51,474 nt of DNA. It comes from a phage. The DNA lies in sequence record PZ445410.1, one strand, 5' to 3'. Position 1 is the stretch's first letter; the number at the start of each line of letters is the position of its first letter. The translations under genes and the position numbers were made by a program. Below the pieces are notes generated by a model. That model was given only the letters and a program-made list of their open reading frames with translations. It ran no database searches and was not told where the DNA came from. Below, one piece after another: positions 16,290 through 51,474 of this stretch.

Positions 16290-16303
16290 TCAAGGAGAAA
16301 GAA

Positions 16304-22208: not shown

Positions 22209-25200
22209 ATGGCTGAAAATATGATAACGGGCAGTAAGGGTGGATCATCAAAACCTTATGTGCCGAAAGAGATGGAAGATAACCTGATCTCAATCAACAA
22301 AATCAAAATCCTTCTTGCCGTTTCCGATGGTGAGTGCGATCCAGATTTCACGCTTCGCGATCTGTATCTCGATGATGTTCCGGTAATTGCAGATGATGGA
22401 ACTGTTAACTATCAGGGTGTGAAAGCTGAATTTCGACCCGGAACGCAGACGCAAGATTACATCCAGGGGTTTACTGACACATCAAGCGAAGTGACGCTGG
22501 CGCGTGACATTACGACGACAAATCCTTATGTAATTTCCGTAACCAACAAAACATTATCGGCTATCAGAATCAAAATGCTAATGCCAACAGGCATTAAGCA
22601 AGAGGATAACGGCGATCTTGTCGGCGTTAAGGTTACTTATGCTGTTGATATGGCTGTTGACGGAGACTCTTACAAAGAGGTATTGCTAGACACTATCGAA
22701 GGTAAAACGCGTTCCGGTTACGACAGAAGCCGGAGGATTGACCTTCCGGCATTTAATGATCGCGTATTACTTAGGGTTAGAAGGGTTACGGCAGACAGCA
22801 CATCTTCTCGTGTTACTGATCTGATTAAACTACAAAGTTACGCTGAGGTTATTGATGCAAAATTCCGTTATCCTCTGACTGGTCTTGTTTACGTTGAATT
22901 TGACAGCGAATTGTTCCCAAATCAGATCCCTAACATTTCAATCAAGAAGAAATGGAAGCTGATTAACGTTCCGAGTAACTACGATCCTGTTTTGAGAGAG
23001 TATCACGGTTCATGGGATGGAACATTCAAAAAAGCATGGTCAAATAATCCAGCATGGGTGCTTTATGACATTATCACAAACCAGCGATATGGATTAGATC
23101 AGCGAGAGCTTGGTGTGCAGGTTGACAAATGGAGTCTTTACGAAGCGGCGCAATACTGCGATCAGAAAGTGCCGGACGGAAAAGGCGGCACAGAGCCGCG
23201 TTATCTATGCGACGTTGTGATTCAAAGCCAGATTGAGGCTTATCAGCTTATTCGTGATATTTGCTCAATCTTCAGAGGCATGAGCTTTTGGAATGGAGAG
23301 AGCTTGTCAATCGTCATTGATAAGCCGCGCGATCCGTCGTACATCTTCACAAATGACAATGTTGTTGATGGTGATTTTCAGTACACAACAGCAAGTGAAA
23401 AGAGCATGTACACGCAGTGCAACGTGACGTTCGATGACGAACAAAACATGTATCAACAGGACGTAGAGGGTGTATTCGACACAGAGGCCGCATTGCGATT
23501 TGGATACAATCCTACAAGCATAACCGCGATCGGATGTACACGCAGGAGTGAGGCTAATCGGCGCGGTCGATGGATACTAAAAACCAACTTGCGCAGCACT
23601 ACGGTAAACTTTGCTACTGGACTGGAAGGCATGATCCCATCAATAGGTGATGTGATTGCTATTGCTGACAATTTTCACAGCAGCAACCTTAAATTAAACC
23701 TATCAGGGCGCGTGATGGAAGTTTCCGGCTTGCAGGTGTTCGTTCCGTTTAAGATTGACGCGCGACCAGGTGATTTCATTATCATCAACAAGCCGGACGG
23801 AAAGCCAGTTAAGCGCACAATCTCAAAAGTAAGCGGTGACGGAAAAACCATTGAACTAAACATTGGGTTTGGGTTTGAAGTTAAACCTGACACGGTTTTT
23901 GCAATCGACCGCACTGATATTGCATTGCAGCAATACGTTGTAACGAGTATCGGCAAAGGTGATGATGATGATGAATTTACATACTCCATCACGGCTGTTG
24001 AATATGACCCTAACAAATACGACGAGATTGATTATGGAGTAAACATTGACGACAGGCCAACTTCAATTGTCCAGCCTGACACAATGGCAGCGCCTGAAAA
24101 TGTGCAAATATCCTCATACTCGCGAATTGTCCAGGGTGCAAGCGTTGAGACAATGGTTGTGTCGTGGGATAAAGTACCTTACGCATCGCTGTATGAAATG
24201 CAATGGCGAAAAGGTGATGGCAACTGGCTGAATACACCACAGACCGCAAACAAAGAAATTGAGGTTGAAGGTATTTATTCAGGAAACTACCAGGTAAGGG
24301 TTAGATCTGTTTCCGCTTCAGGTTCTACGTCTCCGTGGTCCAGAATTGTGACAGCATCACTGACTGGTAAGGTAGGAGAGCCAGGCGCGCCAGTTAACTT
24401 AACCGCATCCGACAATGAAGTGTTTGGCATTCGTGTTAAGTGGGGGATGCCAGAAGGGAGCGGAGACACGGCATACATTGAGCTTCATCAGTCGCCGGAT
24501 GGAACGGCTGAAAACTCAAGCCTGCTAACGCTGATCCCGTATCCACAATATGAATACTGGCACGGTACGCTTCCGGCTGGTCATGTTGTATGGTATCGGA
24601 TCAGGAGCGTAGACAGGATCGGCAACGTTTCCGGTTGGACTGATTTTGTTAGAGGTATGGCTTCAGATGATGTGGAGGCTGTTTTAGGAGATATTCTTGA
24701 TAAGATTTTTGATACTGAAGCAGGTCAGGATCTTAAAGAGAACGCCATTGACAGTGCAAACAAGATAAAGGACCAGGCGCAAGCAATCATCCAGAATGCT
24801 CTTGCTAATGATGCTGATATTAAGTGGACGCGAGTACAAAATGGAAAGCGAAAGGCTGAATATGGTCACGCGCTTGAGCTTATCGCCACAGAGACTGAGG
24901 CGCGAGTTACGCAGATTGAAGAATTGAGGGCGTCAATCGACGAGGATATTGTTTCAAGCATAAAGACAGTGCAGGAGGCTATCGCCACAGAATCTGAAAC
25001 GCGAGCAACTCAAATAAATGCTTTGGATTCAAAATTCACAACTGAAATTGACGGTGTAAAACGCGATACAGCCGCAAGCATTAATCAGGTTAATCAAACC
25101 ATTGCCAATGAGTCAGAAGCGCGCGCGCAGGCCGTTAACGCGCTTGATGCGAAGTTCACAAAGGAGATCGAAGATTTAAACGGAGTCATTAAGACTGAGG

Positions 25201-25787
25201 TTGAGGCTAACATCTCTGAAGTGAAACAGGCTATCGCTAACGAGACAGAGGCAAGGGTGCAGGCTGACCAGGCGTTAACAGCTAAGTTTGGAGACGTTGA
25301 ATCTGCATTAGCTCAAAAACTTGATTCGTGGGCTGGCGTTGATTCGGTTGGCGCTAAGTACGCCATGAAATTGGGCCTTACTTACAACGGGCAGAAGTAC
25401 AGCGCAGGAATGGTAATGCAGCTTTCTCAGAGTTCATCCGGCCTTATCTCGCAAATTTTGTTTGATGCGAATAGGTTTGCGATTATGACTAGCTCGACTG
25501 GCGGAGTGTATACGCTGCCTTTCGTTGTTGAAAATAACCAGGTATTCATCAATAGCTTGTTAGTTAAAAACGGATCAATAAACAATGCGATGATCGGTAA
25601 CTTCATCCAATCAAACAATTACGTTTGGAATCAAACAGGATGGAGGTTGGATAAAAACGGCACGTTTGAAAATTATGGTTCTACTCCTGGAGAGGGAGCC
25701 ATGAAAATGACAAACGAAACGATCAGCGTTAGGGATGCAAACGGCGTTTTGCGTGTTCAGATTGGGCGTATCACAGGTTATTGGTAA
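22209..25787 (+). CDS. central tail fibre / host specificity protein (lambda gpJ-like)
   Basis: 1192 aa after M-L-K-I; FN3-like segments; C-terminal tandem ~35-aa repeats. Confidence 0.8.
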   Translation: MAENMITGSKGGSSKPYVPKEMEDNLISINKIKILLAVSDGECDPDFTLRDLYLDDVPVIADDGTVNYQGVKAEFRPGTQTQDYIQGFTDTSSEVTLARDITTTNPYVISVTNKTLSAIRIKMLMPTGIKQEDNGDLVGVKVTYAVDMAVDGDSYKEVLLDTIEGKTRSGYDRSRRIDLPAFNDRVLLRVRRVTADSTSSRVTDLIKLQSYAEVIDAKFRYPLTGLVYVEFDSELFPNQIPNISIKKKWKLINVPSNYDPVLREYHGSWDGTFKKAWSNNPAWVLYDIITNQRYGLDQRELGVQVDKWSLYEAAQYCDQKVPDGKGGTEPRYLCDVVIQSQIEAYQLIRDICSIFRGMSFWNGESLSIVIDKPRDPSYIFTNDNVVDGDFQYTTASEKSMYTQCNVTFDDEQNMYQQDVEGVFDTEAALRFGYNPTSITAIGCTRRSEANRRGRWILKTNLRSTTVNFATGLEGMIPSIGDVIAIADNFHSSNLKLNLSGRVMEVSGLQVFVPFKIDARPGDFIIINKPDGKPVKRTISKVSGDGKTIELNIGFGFEVKPDTVFAIDRTDIALQQYVVTSIGKGDDDDEFTYSITAVEYDPNKYDEIDYGVNIDDRPTSIVQPDTMAAPENVQISSYSRIVQGASVETMVVSWDKVPYASLYEMQWRKGDGNWLNTPQTANKEIEVEGIYSGNYQVRVRSVSASGSTSPWSRIVTASLTGKVGEPGAPVNLTASDNEVFGIRVKWGMPEGSGDTAYIELHQSPDGTAENSSLLTLIPYPQYEYWHGTLPAGHVVWYRIRSVDRIGNVSGWTDFVRGMASDDVEAVLGDILDKIFDTEAGQDLKENAIDSANKIKDQAQAIIQNALANDADIKWTRVQNGKRKAEYGHALELIATETEARVTQIEELRASIDEDIVSSIKTVQEAIATESETRATQINALDSKFTTEIDGVKRDTAASINQVNQTIANESEARAQAVNALDAKFTKEIEDLNGVIKTEVEANISEVKQAIANETEARVQADQALTAKFGDVESALAQKLDSWAGVDSVGAKYAMKLGLTYNGQKYSAGMVMQLSQSSSGLISQILFDANRFAIMTSSTGGVYTLPFVVENNQVFINSLLVKNGSINNAMIGNFIQSNNYVWNQTGWRLDKNGTFENYGSTPGEGAMKMTNETISVRDANGVLRVQIGRITGYW

Positions 25788-25821: not shown

Positions 25822-26713
25822 TTAGTCATATTTTGATGCGTCTATAGCAAGTATTGATGAAGAATAATAAACCCCAAGCGGACCAGGCGTTTGAGCAACC
25901 TGCTTTGATATTGAGTAAATATTTGATCCAGATGCGCCGGATTGTGATTCAAATATCATGTGACCGCCAAGTTGAGGATTTGGAACGGAGTTTATTGCCG
26001 TTTGAAATGGCGTTACAGCGCATGTATAACCCAAATAAACATCAAATGTTATTCCGCTAACTGGTATTTGGTGAGCCTCTAAAGGCTTCATTTTTCCGTG
26101 GTATGTCATTTGACCAGCGGAATTATAAAACGCTATTCCGTGACTACCAGGACTTGTTACCATATCGCTAAAAGCGTAAACCCTAATCCATCCAGGGTTG
26201 TCCGTCCTATCAATCCTAAGTGCATGATAACCACCATTATTTATGTGAGAAAAAGCAGTGTATGCACGAGATCCCATTCTCACAAAGAAAAAGCATACAC
26301 GATCAAATGGTATTGATGTTTGATAAATGGAGCCGTTATAAACCCCCATATCACCTCGATTAATTAAATTCACAGGCGTAAAATCAGGACTTAGCCAAAT
26401 TGACCCATCCGGCTTTGTGATCTGCATTCCGTACATGTTACCCCCAAAACGTATATATATATCTTGACTCGCCAGCATTAAGACCAGACCACGAAACAGT
26501 ATTCCCGCTAACGTTTATTGTTGGTGCTCCCCAGTTAACTCCAGCCCACGTCTGCGTTCCAATATATCCAGCCTTTAATGTTTTTCCTGGCGGCTGATTG
26601 TAATATGTCTTGCTTCCTGATGGTTGTGTGAATCTATCCAGGAAGAATACAGGAGTTAATAAACCAGTAACATCCCTTCCTTGTTCGTCGTAAATTGCGT
26701 AACCGTATGCCAT
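25822..26713 (-). pseudogene. frameshift-interrupted gene (fragments 26438..26713 and 25822..26478); function unknown
   Basis: Two ORFs overlap by 41 nt in different frames at a C5/G5 tract (26441-26445); removing one G fuses them into about 299 aa; upstream fragment is coupled (TAATG) to the lipoprotein gene. Confidence 0.4.
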
Positions 26714-26982
26714 TATTTGCACTCCACATAATCAAAATTATCCTCGCTTTGCCACCTGTGAACGAAAGTTACATATTTTTGTGATGGAGCTACGCGATAG
26801 TGTTTTTCACCGAATCTGTTTTCGCGCACAGCGTTTATTTTCACAGGATAGCTATCATTTACAGGGAATGTTTTCACCATGTATGAGCCAACGCAATCAA
26901 CCTCTTTATAGCCCCCATCCATTGACGCAGAACAACCAGTCAGGGCAACGGCGGCAATCAAAACGGCTATTAACTTTTTCAT
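26713..26982 (-). CDS. outer-membrane lipoprotein, Cor/Llp-like superinfection exclusion candidate
   Basis: Signal peptide MKKLIAVLIAAVALTGC with lipobox; 89 aa; just downstream of the J gene on the opposite strand. Confidence 0.5.
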   Translation of the reverse strand: MKKLIAVLIAAVALTGCSASMDGGYKEVDCVGSYMVKTFPVNDSYPVKINAVRENRFGEKHYRVAPSQKYVTFVHRWQSEDNFDYVECK

Positions 26983-39112: not shown

Positions 39113-39152
39113 CACTTTTTGTTAAAACAGGCGCGAAGGATTGCGCCATAAT
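39110..39152 (+). promoter_or_regulatory. TAGCAC-box promoter-like cassette (CATAAT at 39147-39152)
   Basis: TAG is the upstream stop; GGCGC..GCGCC inverted repeat in spacer. Confidence 0.5.
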
Positions 39153-40153: not shown

Positions 40154-40193
40154 CACTTTTTGTTAAAACGCCCGACCTTGTGTCGGGCATAAT
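40151..40193 (+). promoter_or_regulatory. TAGCAC-box promoter-like cassette (CATAAT at 40188-40193)
   Basis: TAG is the upstream stop; GCCCGAC..GTCGGGC inverted repeat in spacer. Confidence 0.5.
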
Positions 40194-42703: not shown

Positions 42704-43102
42704 ATGAGAAAGTTATCAGCAATCGCGATCGCTGTTATTTTGTCTGGATGTTCAAGCGTTACGCCACTGACCGGATTAATCGGTAGTAAGCCGGAAATCA
42801 CAGCACAGGCAGGAGCGGAGAACGTAAAGCAGACCGTTGGCGTTACCGCAAAGCAGGACACCAGCACAAAACAGGAAACTACAATAAAGGAATCTGCGGT
42901 TGATAAGGTGGACACTTCCAGCAAGAAGGATTTCACTACGTCAACCATTCAGGCTAACACCATCAAGGCTGATAAAATCCAGGTTGTGCAGGGTGAGCAA
43001 AGTAAGTGGTACGATCCTATAATCTATTGCGCTGCAATTTTCAGTGGTCTTTTGTCAATGCTTTACTTTTCCTACCGCAAAGGCAACAAAAAGGAGGCTT
43101 AA
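42704..43102 (+). CDS. unimolecular spanin (T1 gp11-type)
   Basis: Lipoprotein signal with lipobox LSGC plus C-terminal TMD; 132 aa; last gene of lysis cassette. Confidence 0.7.
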   Translation: MRKLSAIAIAVILSGCSSVTPLTGLIGSKPEITAQAGAENVKQTVGVTAKQDTSTKQETTIKESAVDKVDTSSKKDFTTSTIQANTIKADKIQVVQGEQSKWYDPIIYCAAIFSGLLSMLYFSYRKGNKKEA

Positions 43103-43370: not shown

Positions 43371-43413
43371 AATATACCCGATACGAGATCGGGAGTTTTA
43401 ACAAAAAGTGCTA
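43371..43413 (-). promoter_or_regulatory. TAGCAC-box promoter-like cassette (TATATT)
   Basis: Exact motif on minus strand; its TAG is the stop of ORF 43411..43605. Confidence 0.5.
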
Positions 43414-46214: not shown

Positions 46215-46257
46215 ATTATGCCAGGCTTTTACACCTGGCTTTTAACAAAAAGTGCTA
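46215..46257 (-). promoter_or_regulatory. TAGCAC-box promoter-like cassette (CATAAT)
   Basis: TAG is the stop of the methyltransferase-like gene; CCAGG..CCTGG inverted repeat in spacer. Confidence 0.5.
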
Positions 46258-49480: not shown

Positions 49481-49593
49481 AACCAAGTCAACAAGGTCAT
49501 TTTTAACAGAAAAACCAATGGCTTAACTGAAGCATTTTGTTATCTTTAAACACGCCATGCGCCAAAAATTGTTATTAAAACACAAAAATACAT

Positions 49594-49621
49594 TGACATG
49601 CAGGAAGGGCAAGGCAATAAT
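49594..49621 (+). promoter_or_regulatory. sigma70-type promoter (TTGACA, 16 nt, AATAAT)
   Basis: Consensus -35; A/T-rich upstream region. Confidence 0.5.
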
Positions 49622-49657: not shown

Positions 49658-50128
49658 ATGATCGAAGAAAATATTAGCACCATGTCGCGTAGTGAGTTCT
49701 GCGATATGCTTCGCGACCTGGGCGCGGCAATTGGTAGTGGTGAGCGTAATAATGTATTCATGCCAGCGCTTTTTTTGTGCGCTAATGTGGAGAACGGCGA
49801 AGCAATTACGGCATCGTACATGCGCCAGGTTGTCAACCGCGTACCTGAAGTAAAGCAAAAAGGCGTGATCAGCATTAAGCGAAAGGTGACTGATGAGGGT
49901 GATGGCTTTGTGTTTGCGCTCACTGAAGCCAAAAGCAAACCTCGTGTTCTGACTGGGGATGATATAGCGAAACTTGAAATCAAGTGGCGAGCAAAGTTTA
50001 TTGCTCAACTACTGAAAACACAGCCGCGAATCAGTGATCTGGAAGGTGAGCGCCTGGAGGGTGCGGCAATCGCACTTGAGCGAATGAATGAAATGCTCAA
50101 CGAGATGGTAAAGGTGGGGGATGAATAA
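49658..50128 (+). CDS. hypothetical early protein (157 aa)
   Basis: AAAAGGAG RBS before internal ATG of track ORF. Confidence 0.5.
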   Translation: MIEENISTMSRSEFCDMLRDLGAAIGSGERNNVFMPALFLCANVENGEAITASYMRQVVNRVPEVKQKGVISIKRKVTDEGDGFVFALTEAKSKPRVLTGDDIAKLEIKWRAKFIAQLLKTQPRISDLEGERLEGAAIALERMNEMLNEMVKVGDE

Positions 50129-50388
50129 TGAATAAGGCATTAATTGGAGTTTTGATTGCAATTGCTACCCTGACCGGATGCGAAAAGGCATCTGAATCAA
50201 CGGTAGTCGTAGGCGTGGAGTCAGATTTTAAAGTCGGTCGCCTGTTTACTGTTGATGGATGCACTGCGTACCGATTCTATGACAACGGTCGGGCAATCTA
50301 TTACACCAATTGTAAGGGCGCAACGGATAGCACATACCGCAGCGGCAAAAACGTAATGCACCAACAAGTCACAACAGATATGAAATAG
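50128..50388 (+). CDS. lipoprotein (86 aa), early-expressed
   Basis: Signal peptide MNKALIGVLIAIATLTGC with lipobox. Confidence 0.55.
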   Translation: MNKALIGVLIAIATLTGCEKASESTVVVGVESDFKVGRLFTVDGCTAYRFYDNGRAIYYTNCKGATDSTYRSGKNVMHQQVTTDMK

Positions 50389-50428
50389 CACTTTTTGTTA
50401 AAACGCCAGGTGCAAATCCTGGCATAAT
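50386..50428 (+). promoter_or_regulatory. TAGCAC-box promoter-like cassette (CATAAT at 50423-50428)
   Basis: TAG is the lipoprotein stop; GCCAGG..CCTGGC inverted repeat in spacer. Confidence 0.5.
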
Positions 50429-50891: not shown

Positions 50892-50945
50892 ACACACATA
50901 GGGCGGCACGGCGTCGCCCAGTTAAACCAATCAGGAGAAAGCACT

Positions 50946-51474
50946 ATGTTAAAACTTGCTAACATTAAATTCCCGATCACCTTCGAATCTCGCGGCGTTG
51001 GTCACTTCATGTTTTCCGACAAAAATACATGCACTAAGTTTAACGAATACGGAAAGCCTGATGTTTCAACAATGGAGATTGAGCACCTCATTGATGCGCA
51101 CAATAAGCACTACAACTCGCTTAAAGACTATGGCTACGCAATGCCAGGCTATACATGTTTTCACTACAAGCCATATAAGGGCCAGGTGTTACCAGTGCGC
51201 TCACCGGAACGCGCAGAGATTCCGATGGTCGAGATGAAAACCTGCGACTATAAAAAATTGTGGTGCTTAAGAGTGGATAACATCAAGTATCCGATCACGT
51301 TCTACACGGCTGGTAATTCAACGATTCGCTTCACATCGCGCGAAAATGGCGTTTATAGCGATGGTACGAAATCAGAGTTGAAAGTTGATTTCTTTGTCAA
51401 TGGTCACAACAAATTCAATCCGCACAACGAAGAGGATAAGGTTTACTACGTGGAAGACATTACAAAACACTTGT
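50946..51474 (+). CDS. hypothetical protein with internally duplicated domain, 3' end beyond window (possibly continuing at 1..362)
   Basis: AGGAGAAAG RBS then ATG at 50946; frame open to last base; two similar segments (IKFPITFESRG... / IKYPITFYTAG...). Confidence 0.5.
   Translation, partial: MLKLANIKFPITFESRGVGHFMFSDKNTCTKFNEYGKPDVSTMEIEHLIDAHNKHYNSLKDYGYAMPGYTCFHYKPYKGQVLPVRSPERAEIPMVEMKTCDYKKLWCLRVDNIKYPITFYTAGNSTIRFTSRENGVYSDGTKSELKVDFFVNGHNKFNPHNEEDKVYYVEDITKHL

Follow-up and report, generated by a model that had tools for sequence, protein, structure and literature searches.

A DUF4884-family lipoprotein gene in the early region of a T1-like coliphage and its relation to the Cor-like lipoprotein

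Small phage lipoproteins that act on outer-membrane receptors have been described in several coliphages: Cor of T1, phi80, N15 and HK022 is directed against FhuA, Llp of T5, which is expressed early in infection, is likewise a FhuA blocker, and Rtp45 of phage Rtp blocks LptDE. A solved structure of Rtp45 bound to LptDE accounts for the exclusion (PMC12685063; PDB 9RPS). Here, we analyse a stretch of phage DNA of 51,474 nucleotides (nt; PZ445410.1, called the window in the following), for which a preliminary description made from the letters alone had proposed that an open reading frame (ORF) of 86 amino acids (aa) at 50128-50388 encodes an early lipoprotein. We are confident that this is a genuine early-region gene of a T1-like phage and that its product belongs to the DUF4884 family of lipoproteins; at present, it stands as a correctly spotted and already catalogued hypothetical gene.

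The DUF4884 protein shares traits with each of the described systems. Like Cor, it is a small phage lipoprotein with two cysteines in the mature part and a nearly identical signal peptide, but the mature parts show no similarity, and Cor genes lie close to J and are exchanged as cassettes, whereas the DUF4884 gene is inherited with the genome backbone. With Llp and Rtp45 it has in common its size, a predicted periplasmic lipid anchor, a predicted disulfide and its content of beta-hairpins, and these two proteins provide the best available working analogy; they differ from it in that neither sequence nor fold can be matched and that the DUF4884 gene does not lie beside a receptor-binding gene. 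A u-spanin of the T1 gp11 type is also a phage lipoprotein that has a lipobox and acts in the periplasm, but it is twice as long, has a C-terminal transmembrane helix and is encoded in the lysis cassette. A spanin or lysis role of the DUF4884 protein was ruled out by its early-gene position and by the lack of any C-terminal hydrophobic or transmembrane segment.

The early lipoprotein gene and its family

The gene lies in a two-gene unit with the following parts:

49593-49621, plus strand: sigma-70 promoter, TTGACA-17-AATAAT, 11 of 12 matches, predicted to drive the two-gene unit
49658-50128, plus strand: first gene of the unit, 156-aa DUF7174 protein (PF23796, 154.7 bits, E 1.9e-45; phrog_4841)
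50113-50121, plus strand: Shine-Dalgarno-like GGTGGGGGA, G-rich, 7 nt ahead of the lipoprotein ATG
50128-50388, plus strand: lipoprotein ORF, 86 aa
50128-50181, plus strand: lipoprotein signal peptide, residues 1-18, lipobox L-T-G-C, Cys18 predicted to be lipidated
50182-50385, plus strand: mature part after Cys18, with the tether EKASES and a predicted six-stranded antiparallel beta-sheet; conserved core at residues 34-64 with Cys45 and Cys62, variable C-terminal hairpin at residues 65-86
50386-50388, plus strand: stop codon TAG
50384-50428, plus strand: putative phage-specific promoter at the boundary of the unit, with box AATAGCACTTTTTGTTAAAAC, spacer hairpin CCAGGtgcaaatCCTGG and -10 element CATAAT, serving the downstream genes

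The reading frame is present just as it had been described, and its ATG is the earliest that can serve as start, as the frame is closed upstream by a TGA at 50122-50124. This ATG overlaps the TAA of the upstream DUF7174 gene (TAATG), a classic sign that translation of the lipoprotein gene is coupled to that of its neighbour, which has an AAGGAG 7 nt ahead of its own ATG. The claim that the lipoprotein gene is the second one behind a canonical sigma-70 promoter held as well: the DUF7174 gene is the first gene, and the promoter is close to consensus, being one of two sites in all with 11 of 12 matches in a scan of the entire 51.5-kb genome. It is not preceded by the AATAGCAC...TTGTTAAAAC box that marks 15 other promoters, and most other early genes stand behind this boxed, putatively phage-specific class, which is itself sigma-70-like. 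Judged by the promoter consensus, early expression of the lipoprotein, which had been proposed to begin right after infection, is plausible. The arrangement of promoter, DUF7174 gene and DUF4884 gene recurs in phage Rtp, and in Pseudomonas, Serratia and Xanthomonas phages the DUF4884 gene stands in arrays of small genes of an early type.

The N-terminus of the protein consists of the n-region MNK, the h-region ALIGVLIAIATL and the lipobox LTG-C18. Lipoproteins were recognized by a positively charged n-region, an uncharged h-region and the motif [LVI][ASTVI][GAS]-C with the cysteine at position 15-35, and a PROSITE PS51257-type rule accepts the window protein and 98 of 108 aligned relatives. 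The Cys18 column is invariant, in 26 of 26 sequences of a shallow and 108 of 108 sequences of a deeper alignment, so that the protein comes out as a lipoprotein, as had been proposed, by every sequence criterion applied. In E. coli, Asp at position +2 after the lipidated cysteine is the signal for retention in the inner membrane (Lol avoidance). This residue is Glu in the window protein, and Asp occurs in just 6 of the 108 family members; sorting to the outer membrane would therefore be expected. The mature lipoprotein, counted from Cys18, has 69 aa, with a computed mass of about 7.7 kDa and a pI of 7.9. Its cysteines come as a pair: 97 of the 108 relatives have both Cys45 and Cys62, 10 have neither, and only 1 has a single one. 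A second pair at positions 72 and 76, not present in the window protein, follows the same pattern (both in 36, neither in 69, one in 3). This coupled gain and loss implies disulfides and hence an oxidizing environment, which for the window protein would mean a Cys45-Cys62 bond and a location in the periplasm.

As to the family, the window protein scores 24.5 bits with the Pfam model PF16225 (DUF4884; E 2.3e-5, residues 32-60), below the gathering threshold of 30. Despite this score, the profile-level similarity and the shared core motif identify it as a divergent member of the DUF4884 superfamily, because 107 of the 108 aligned relatives do match PF16225. All 38 close homologues found in a word-indexed search have a precomputed PF16225 tag, a GenBank protein with 98.8% identity is annotated as 'DUF4884 domain-containing protein', and a deltaproteobacterial relative reaches 31 bits with the model. 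Other members (PF16225; PHROG 6360 is the PHROG counterpart of these lipoproteins) have the same core motif, size and lipobox, and what distinguishes the window gene is its place in an early two-gene unit of a virulent coliphage. Scans of the protein with NCBIfam and PADLOC gave no match.

The protein was found by tblastn in 119 phage records. These include T1-like coliphages, for example Rtp and JeanPiccard, and range beyond the coliphages to the Serratia phages MTx and MyoSmar, Erwinia phage TropicalSun, Pantoea phage AAS23, Pseudomonas phage Dolphis and the Xanthomonas jumbo phages X1 and BUDD. Of 1.84 billion cluster representatives (clusters at 50% identity), 1426 matched a profile at E<=1e-3 and 404 matched it at E<=1e-10; nearly all of these matches have 80-110 aa, a lipobox and the core LFTvDGCtVYRFxDxGxxxYFTNCxG. 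Cys18, Phe40, Phe50 and Asp52 are invariant in the 108-sequence alignment, and Leu39, Gly44, Tyr48, Arg49, Tyr58, Cys62, Gly64, Gly73 and Lys74 are conserved in at least 90% of the sequences. DUF4884 lipoproteins are, by these comparisons, a large and mostly phage-borne family, and near-identical copies of the window protein are already annotated in GenBank. The Pfam family was defined on Bacteroides proteins and, as judged only from this origin and from the style of some lipoboxes, DUF4884 probably also exists in Bacteroidetes. The tether that follows the lipidated cysteine is conserved to an unexpected degree in alignment A2 (C-E-K-x-x-E, window residues 19-23; Lys20 in 56%, Glu23 in 47%), also in sequences with Bacteroidetes-style lipoboxes, and its motif resembles the acidic export signals of Bacteroidetes surface lipoproteins.

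AlphaFold2 modelling with the 108-sequence alignment gave a confident prediction (ma8bc861b5a74; predicted local distance difference test score, pLDDT, 89.2; predicted template modelling score 0.71), as compared to a pLDDT of 68.7 with the shallow 26-sequence alignment. In the model, residues 3-13 form the signal helix, and the six antiparallel strands span residues 24-28, 34-42, 45-52, 55-60, 64-72 and 75-83. Foldseek detected no significant neighbour in the PDB (best E 0.75), structural matches in BFVD were confined to family members (DUF4884 or 'Lipoprotein' phage proteins), and sequence searches of solved structures, with the single sequence as well as with the profile, returned signal-peptide noise only.

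Sequence variation among T1-like phages is unevenly distributed over this fold. Identity to the window protein is as follows:

Residues 34-64, core: 77-100%; 61% in the outlier P0038
Residues 19-33, tether and strand 1: 7-100%
Residues 65-86, C-terminal hairpin: 23-41% outside the closest relatives

Two sequences of alignment A1 are mosaics: P0012 matches the window protein fully in signal peptide and tether (100%) and almost fully in the core up to residue 64 (97%), but has only 27% identity in the hairpin, and P0038 combines an identical signal peptide with a divergent mature part. These mosaics indicate recombination inside the 86-codon gene. A conserved scaffold with a swappable hairpin would suit a binding protein, or could mean relaxed constraint.

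That the frame is a chance ORF, or that its product is a cytoplasmic or membrane-anchored protein whose N-terminus only resembles a lipobox, would be compatible with the Pfam score of 24.5 instead of 30 bits and with the fact that lipidation is so far a prediction from the sequence. Such readings have to contend with a lipobox cysteine that is invariant across hundreds of conserved homologues, with the paired cysteines and the confidently predicted fold, and with a good ribosome-binding site and the signs of translational coupling. We consider them close to refuted and essentially excluded; on comparative grounds, with 38 close homologues, 119 phage records and 1426 clusters, the ORF is a genuine gene under selection.

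Relation to the Cor-like lipoprotein and the receptor module

Other features of the window that bear on the comparison with Cor are the following:

26713-26982, minus strand: Cor-like lipoprotein, 89 aa, 35% identical to T1 Cor (E 2e-6)
25822-26982, minus strand: three-gene cassette (89, 94 and 218 aa) headed by the Cor-like gene
22209-25787: J-like tail-tip gene, with the cassette directly downstream
42704-43099: u-spanin homologue (T1 gp11-type) with a lipobox, surrounded by the lysis cassette

In the preliminary description, the early gene was called a second lipoprotein, with an unclear relation to the Cor-like one. The Cor-like ORF is real, and its strand has to be corrected to minus; with the u-spanin homologue included in the count, the DUF4884 gene is the third lipobox ORF instead of the second. 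In the pairwise comparison that had been suggested as a check, BLASTP aligned residues 3-18 only, with 11 of 16 signal-peptide residues identical. A profile of the mature domain scored 91.8 bits on the window protein, 87.0 on rtp3 of Rtp and -1.3 on T1 Cor, gave no match to the Cor-like protein of the window or to Rtp45, and did not exceed 0 bits on ST72 of T1. As nothing beyond the signal peptide is similar, we rejected homology between the DUF4884 and Cor-like lipoproteins. The Cor-like protein itself is a real but distant Cor homologue by sequence, with 19.5 bits against a threshold of 31 on the NCBIfam Cor model, which the DUF4884 protein does not match.

The two genes are also separate in position and inheritance. 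The DUF4884 gene lies 23 kb from the J/Cor cassette, and the BASEL study reported that receptor-binding loci downstream of gpJ move horizontally along with their exclusion genes and follow receptor specificity, not phylogeny (PMC8594841). In JakobBernoulli, a DUF4884 copy with 97.7% identity occurs together with a T1-type cassette: its Cor is just 36% identical to the Cor-like protein of the window, the cassette proteins are 52-57% identical to ST32, ST31 and Cor of T1, and the other two cassette proteins have no match to those of the window. Phages that uniformly have a Cor-like protein of about 56% identity to that of the window fall into two classes by tblastn, one with DUF4884 copies of 91-93% identity (FritzSarasin, vB_EcoS-95, Poky, atuna, tiwna) and one with copies of 44-47% (tonnikala, JLBYU10, BEK12A, tonijn, JK16). 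The LptD-targeting phages Rtp and JeanPiccard have a copy with 56% identity to that of the window, and Rtp carries it (rtp3) together with Rtp45. It follows from the JakobBernoulli, two-class and Rtp comparisons that the DUF4884 gene is inherited with the genome backbone and coexists with blockers of at least two receptor types, and Rtp45 and DUF4884 are not redundant, since Rtp encodes both. On this evidence, the DUF4884 gene is independent of the phage's own receptor module, which argues against a receptor-tied role; the preliminary suggestion that the lipoprotein could target a different receptor or envelope process is reasonable as a hypothesis.

This independence bears on the idea of a receptor-specific exclusion lipoprotein of the Llp, Cor or Rtp45 kind that would bind one particular outer-membrane protein, not used by this phage, on its periplasmic side and would thereby shut out competitors that do use it. 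Llp of T5 is an early gene as well, and a hypervariable, recombining hairpin would suit the interface of an arms race. The predicted protein also has the general build of proven blockers, small, lipidated and disulfide-bonded with beta-hairpins (PMC12685063). But the gene adjoins no receptor-binding gene, its type does not track the host-recognition module, the core is kept across phages whose hosts differ in their outer-membrane proteins, and homology or a fold match to Cor, Llp or Rtp45 is lacking. We therefore consider receptor-specific exclusion unlikely.

With regard to the cassette itself, relatives of the 218-aa protein carry the annotation 'membrane associated protein' in numerous coliphages, Stx-converting ones among them, and phiE31-2 (PP988008.1) has an identical Cor-like cassette. 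INPHARED records labelled 'Campylobacter phage' with the host C. jejuni (MG065643, MG065657, MG065680, MG065681 and others) are 49.9-kb T1-like coliphage genomes whose Cor-like protein is 94% and whose cassette protein is 99% identical to those of the window; these are probably mislabelled or contaminant isolates.

Proposed role and alternatives

We infer the following course of events. Host RNA polymerase would probably transcribe the gene from the sigma-70 promoter at 49593, and translation would occur in tandem with the upstream DUF7174 gene. The precursor would be exported, lipidated at Cys18 and cleaved by signal peptidase II, and the Lol system would probably carry the lipoprotein to the inner leaflet of the outer membrane, where a six-stranded sheet of about 7.7 kDa, stapled by Cys45-Cys62, would sit on a short tether in the periplasm. 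There it may bind an envelope component other than the terminal receptor of the phage itself and alter the envelope early in infection, a step that we propose with low confidence, and the invariant core could serve as a scaffold with the fast-evolving, recombining C-terminal hairpin as contact surface. The likeliest purpose would be exclusion or protection at the level of the envelope, by which competing phages or the loss of progeny on debris would be blocked. As a whole, with the functional guess included, this explanation is tentative, and we give it somewhat less than an even chance of being right.

Exclusion or protection is favoured because of the analogy to Llp, Cor and Rtp45 and because of the positions of DUF4884 genes in prophages. 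A scan of species-representative bacterial genomes, carried out with alignment A3, which is narrower than A2, found 11 loci, mostly in Pseudomonas. One (L002) lies in a recombination or nin-like region of a prophage with an exonuclease, an HNH endonuclease and a NinI-like phosphatase, and two (L006 and L007, in Pseudomonas prophages) lie 1.5-2 kb from phage integrases; such positions are typical of accessory or exclusion genes. Plasmids contained no homologue, and neither did 5426 complete E. coli genomes when compared at the DNA level. On the strength of analogy and position, an exclusion or protection role is possible rather than probable.

Several points weigh against this role. No function is assigned to DUF4884 by any experiment or annotation, and in searchable papers the name occurs only in two table listings; nothing relevant on phage-encoded or early lipoproteins turned up there either, and a recent study of the Cor loci of T1-like phages leaves the DUF4884 gene undiscussed. 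No characterized protein, be it Llp, Cor, Rtp45 or any other, matches in fold or sequence. The early timing is deduced solely from the promoter consensus. The deltaproteobacterial copy has a threonyl-tRNA synthetase gene on one side and an OPT transporter gene on the other, a plain chromosomal setting. T1 has no DUF4884 homologue, with ST76, which is not a lipoprotein, in the slot after the weak DUF7174 gene ST77, and the gene must therefore be dispensable for a T1-type life cycle. Finally, the core motif is conserved across Pseudomonas, Xanthomonas, Serratia and E. coli hosts, unlike what is seen with binders of receptor loops, and this conservation could equally mean a housekeeping-type role in the envelope.

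A core that is kept across phyla would also fit a universal target such as peptidoglycan or its hydrolases, and thus a protein that inhibits or modulates an enzyme of the cell wall or envelope (for instance a lysozyme or lytic-transglycosylase inhibitor like Spackle of T4 or MliC/PliC) or an accessory factor of lysis timing, which would guard the infected cell against premature lysis or lysis from without. The predicted periplasmic location agrees with such a function, as does the occurrence as a stand-alone gene that has no conserved partner outside Drexlerviridae. In Rtp, the sigma-70-like promoter is followed by rtp1 (DUF7174, 176.5 bits), the tiny rtp2, rtp3 (DUF4884), a promoter of the motif type and pnk. 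DUF7174 as a general partner was rejected, as the pairing is limited to Drexlerviridae (Rtp) and absent in Serratia, Pseudomonas and Xanthomonas phages and in Pseudomonas prophages. An inhibitor of this kind is nevertheless distinctly improbable: neither Pfam nor NCBIfam nor the fold gives a match to MliC/PliC/Ivy or any other inhibitor, the gene lies outside the lysis cassette (around 42704-43099), and it adjoins lysis genes in none of the phages examined; in Dolphis, MTx and X1, it is found in runs of small unannotated genes and never next to lysis or tail genes. An identity with MliC/PliC was rejected, as DUF4884 is the only Pfam match, the predicted sheet is six-stranded and not an eight-stranded barrel, and there is no significant PDB neighbour.

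The putative immediate-early position beside another uncharacterized gene, that of DUF7174, has led us to weigh an envelope-acting host-takeover or counter-defence factor as well, one that would, for example, blunt a stress response or an abortive-infection or other defence system, or alter vesicle or lipopolysaccharide traffic. Counter-defence genes abound in the early accessory regions of virulent phages, and ST77, the T1 protein that takes the place of the partner, has a very weak match to AcrF2. We think this reading very unlikely, as it is drawn purely from gene position; moreover, PADLOC, whose library covers defence and not counter-defence proteins, gave no match, and we know of no precedent for a lipoprotein that acts as an anti-defence factor. 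The scores of ST77 (539-1114 of T1, L017) are sub-threshold throughout, with 21.3 bits for DUF7174 and 17.6 bits (E 0.005) for AcrF2, and the AcrF2 match is probably noise.

Envelope-level exclusion or protection could take a broader form, in which DUF4884 proteins would be pan-Gram-negative, mostly phage-borne early periplasmic lipoproteins that act on a universal envelope machine or structure (Lpt, Bam, Lol, Tol-Pal or peptidoglycan). We regard this as an unlikely, speculative extension. If it were true, it would amount to a new mechanism of receptor-independent superinfection exclusion or of host-envelope takeover, in which the core recognizes the common target and the swappable hairpin tunes specificity. 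An uncharacterized family of 1426 clusters recurs among unrelated phages that infect E. coli, Serratia, Erwinia, Pantoea, Pseudomonas and Xanthomonas, in their early or accessory regions, and as T1-like phages already carry a receptor blocker (Cor or Rtp45), a second, unrelated and module-independent lipoprotein in a putative immediate-early position suggests a further envelope step that has not been described. The system is tractable, with a protein of about 7.7 kDa, E. coli K-12 as host and close homologues in the BASEL phages JakobBernoulli, FritzSarasin, PeterMerian and JeanPiccard; once its target is known, a mechanism of exclusion or takeover not seen before might come to light, and perhaps also a point at which the Gram-negative envelope is vulnerable.

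Genome setting and the boxed promoters

At the DNA level, the early region shares 90-95% identity with that of many Drexlerviridae (SFP17, Henu8, phiE31-2, JakobBernoulli/Bas07; Tempevirinae, Hanrivervirus). A gene of about 294 aa, the equivalent of bas07_0071, spans the window ends, as it starts at 50927, leaves at 51474 and finishes at 1-361, and the window is therefore read as a circularly permuted, complete T1-like genome (Drexlerviridae, Hanrivervirus-like). The counterpart of the gene at 49658 is the first gene at the left physical genome end in Rtp and T1, which puts the lipoprotein gene right at the beginning of the early region of the left end. The segment 49240-49590, from which the leftward and the rightward early operons diverge, is non-coding and GT-rich, with degenerate repeats (GGTG/TGTG runs), and comparison with the gene order of Rtp and T1 equates it with the physical ends or the pac region of genomes of the T1 type. 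The left-end early region of T1 (L017) contains ST72 (2099-2272), an ORF of 57 aa with the lipobox VVSGC and no Pfam match, possibly a non-homologous, putative early lipoprotein.

The first of the boxed promoters lies directly 3' of the lipoprotein stop (50384-50428). The 21-nt box AATAGCACTTTTTGTTAAAAC has 15 copies in the genome, as compared to 0.10 expected by chance, and T1 has 16:

Plus strand, starts at 362, 1347, 2649, 3994, 36590, 39108, 40149, 50384 and 50847: AATAGCACTTTTTGTTAAAAC box
Minus strand, at 16291, 43415, 45583, 46259, 48126 and 49003: AATAGCACTTTTTGTTAAAAC box

Every copy points in the direction of the local genes, and a -10-like hexamer stands at a constant distance behind it (-35 TTAAAA, 18-nt spacer), with a ribosome-binding site and an ATG 35-45 nt downstream of this hexamer. 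By these sequence features, the sites constitute a phage-specific promoter class, and the conserved upstream half of the box may be a candidate binding site for a phage regulator. The -35/-10 spacers of many of these promoters contain a short inverted repeat whose palindromy is kept while the sequence varies, for example CCAGGtgcaaatCCTGG and CCCGAccttgtgTCGGG:

50405-50422, 40170-40186 and 39129-39146: spacer inverted repeats
About 43378-43394 and about 46222-46238, minus strand: spacer inverted repeats

These repeats could represent an overlap with a terminator or attenuator, or an operator.

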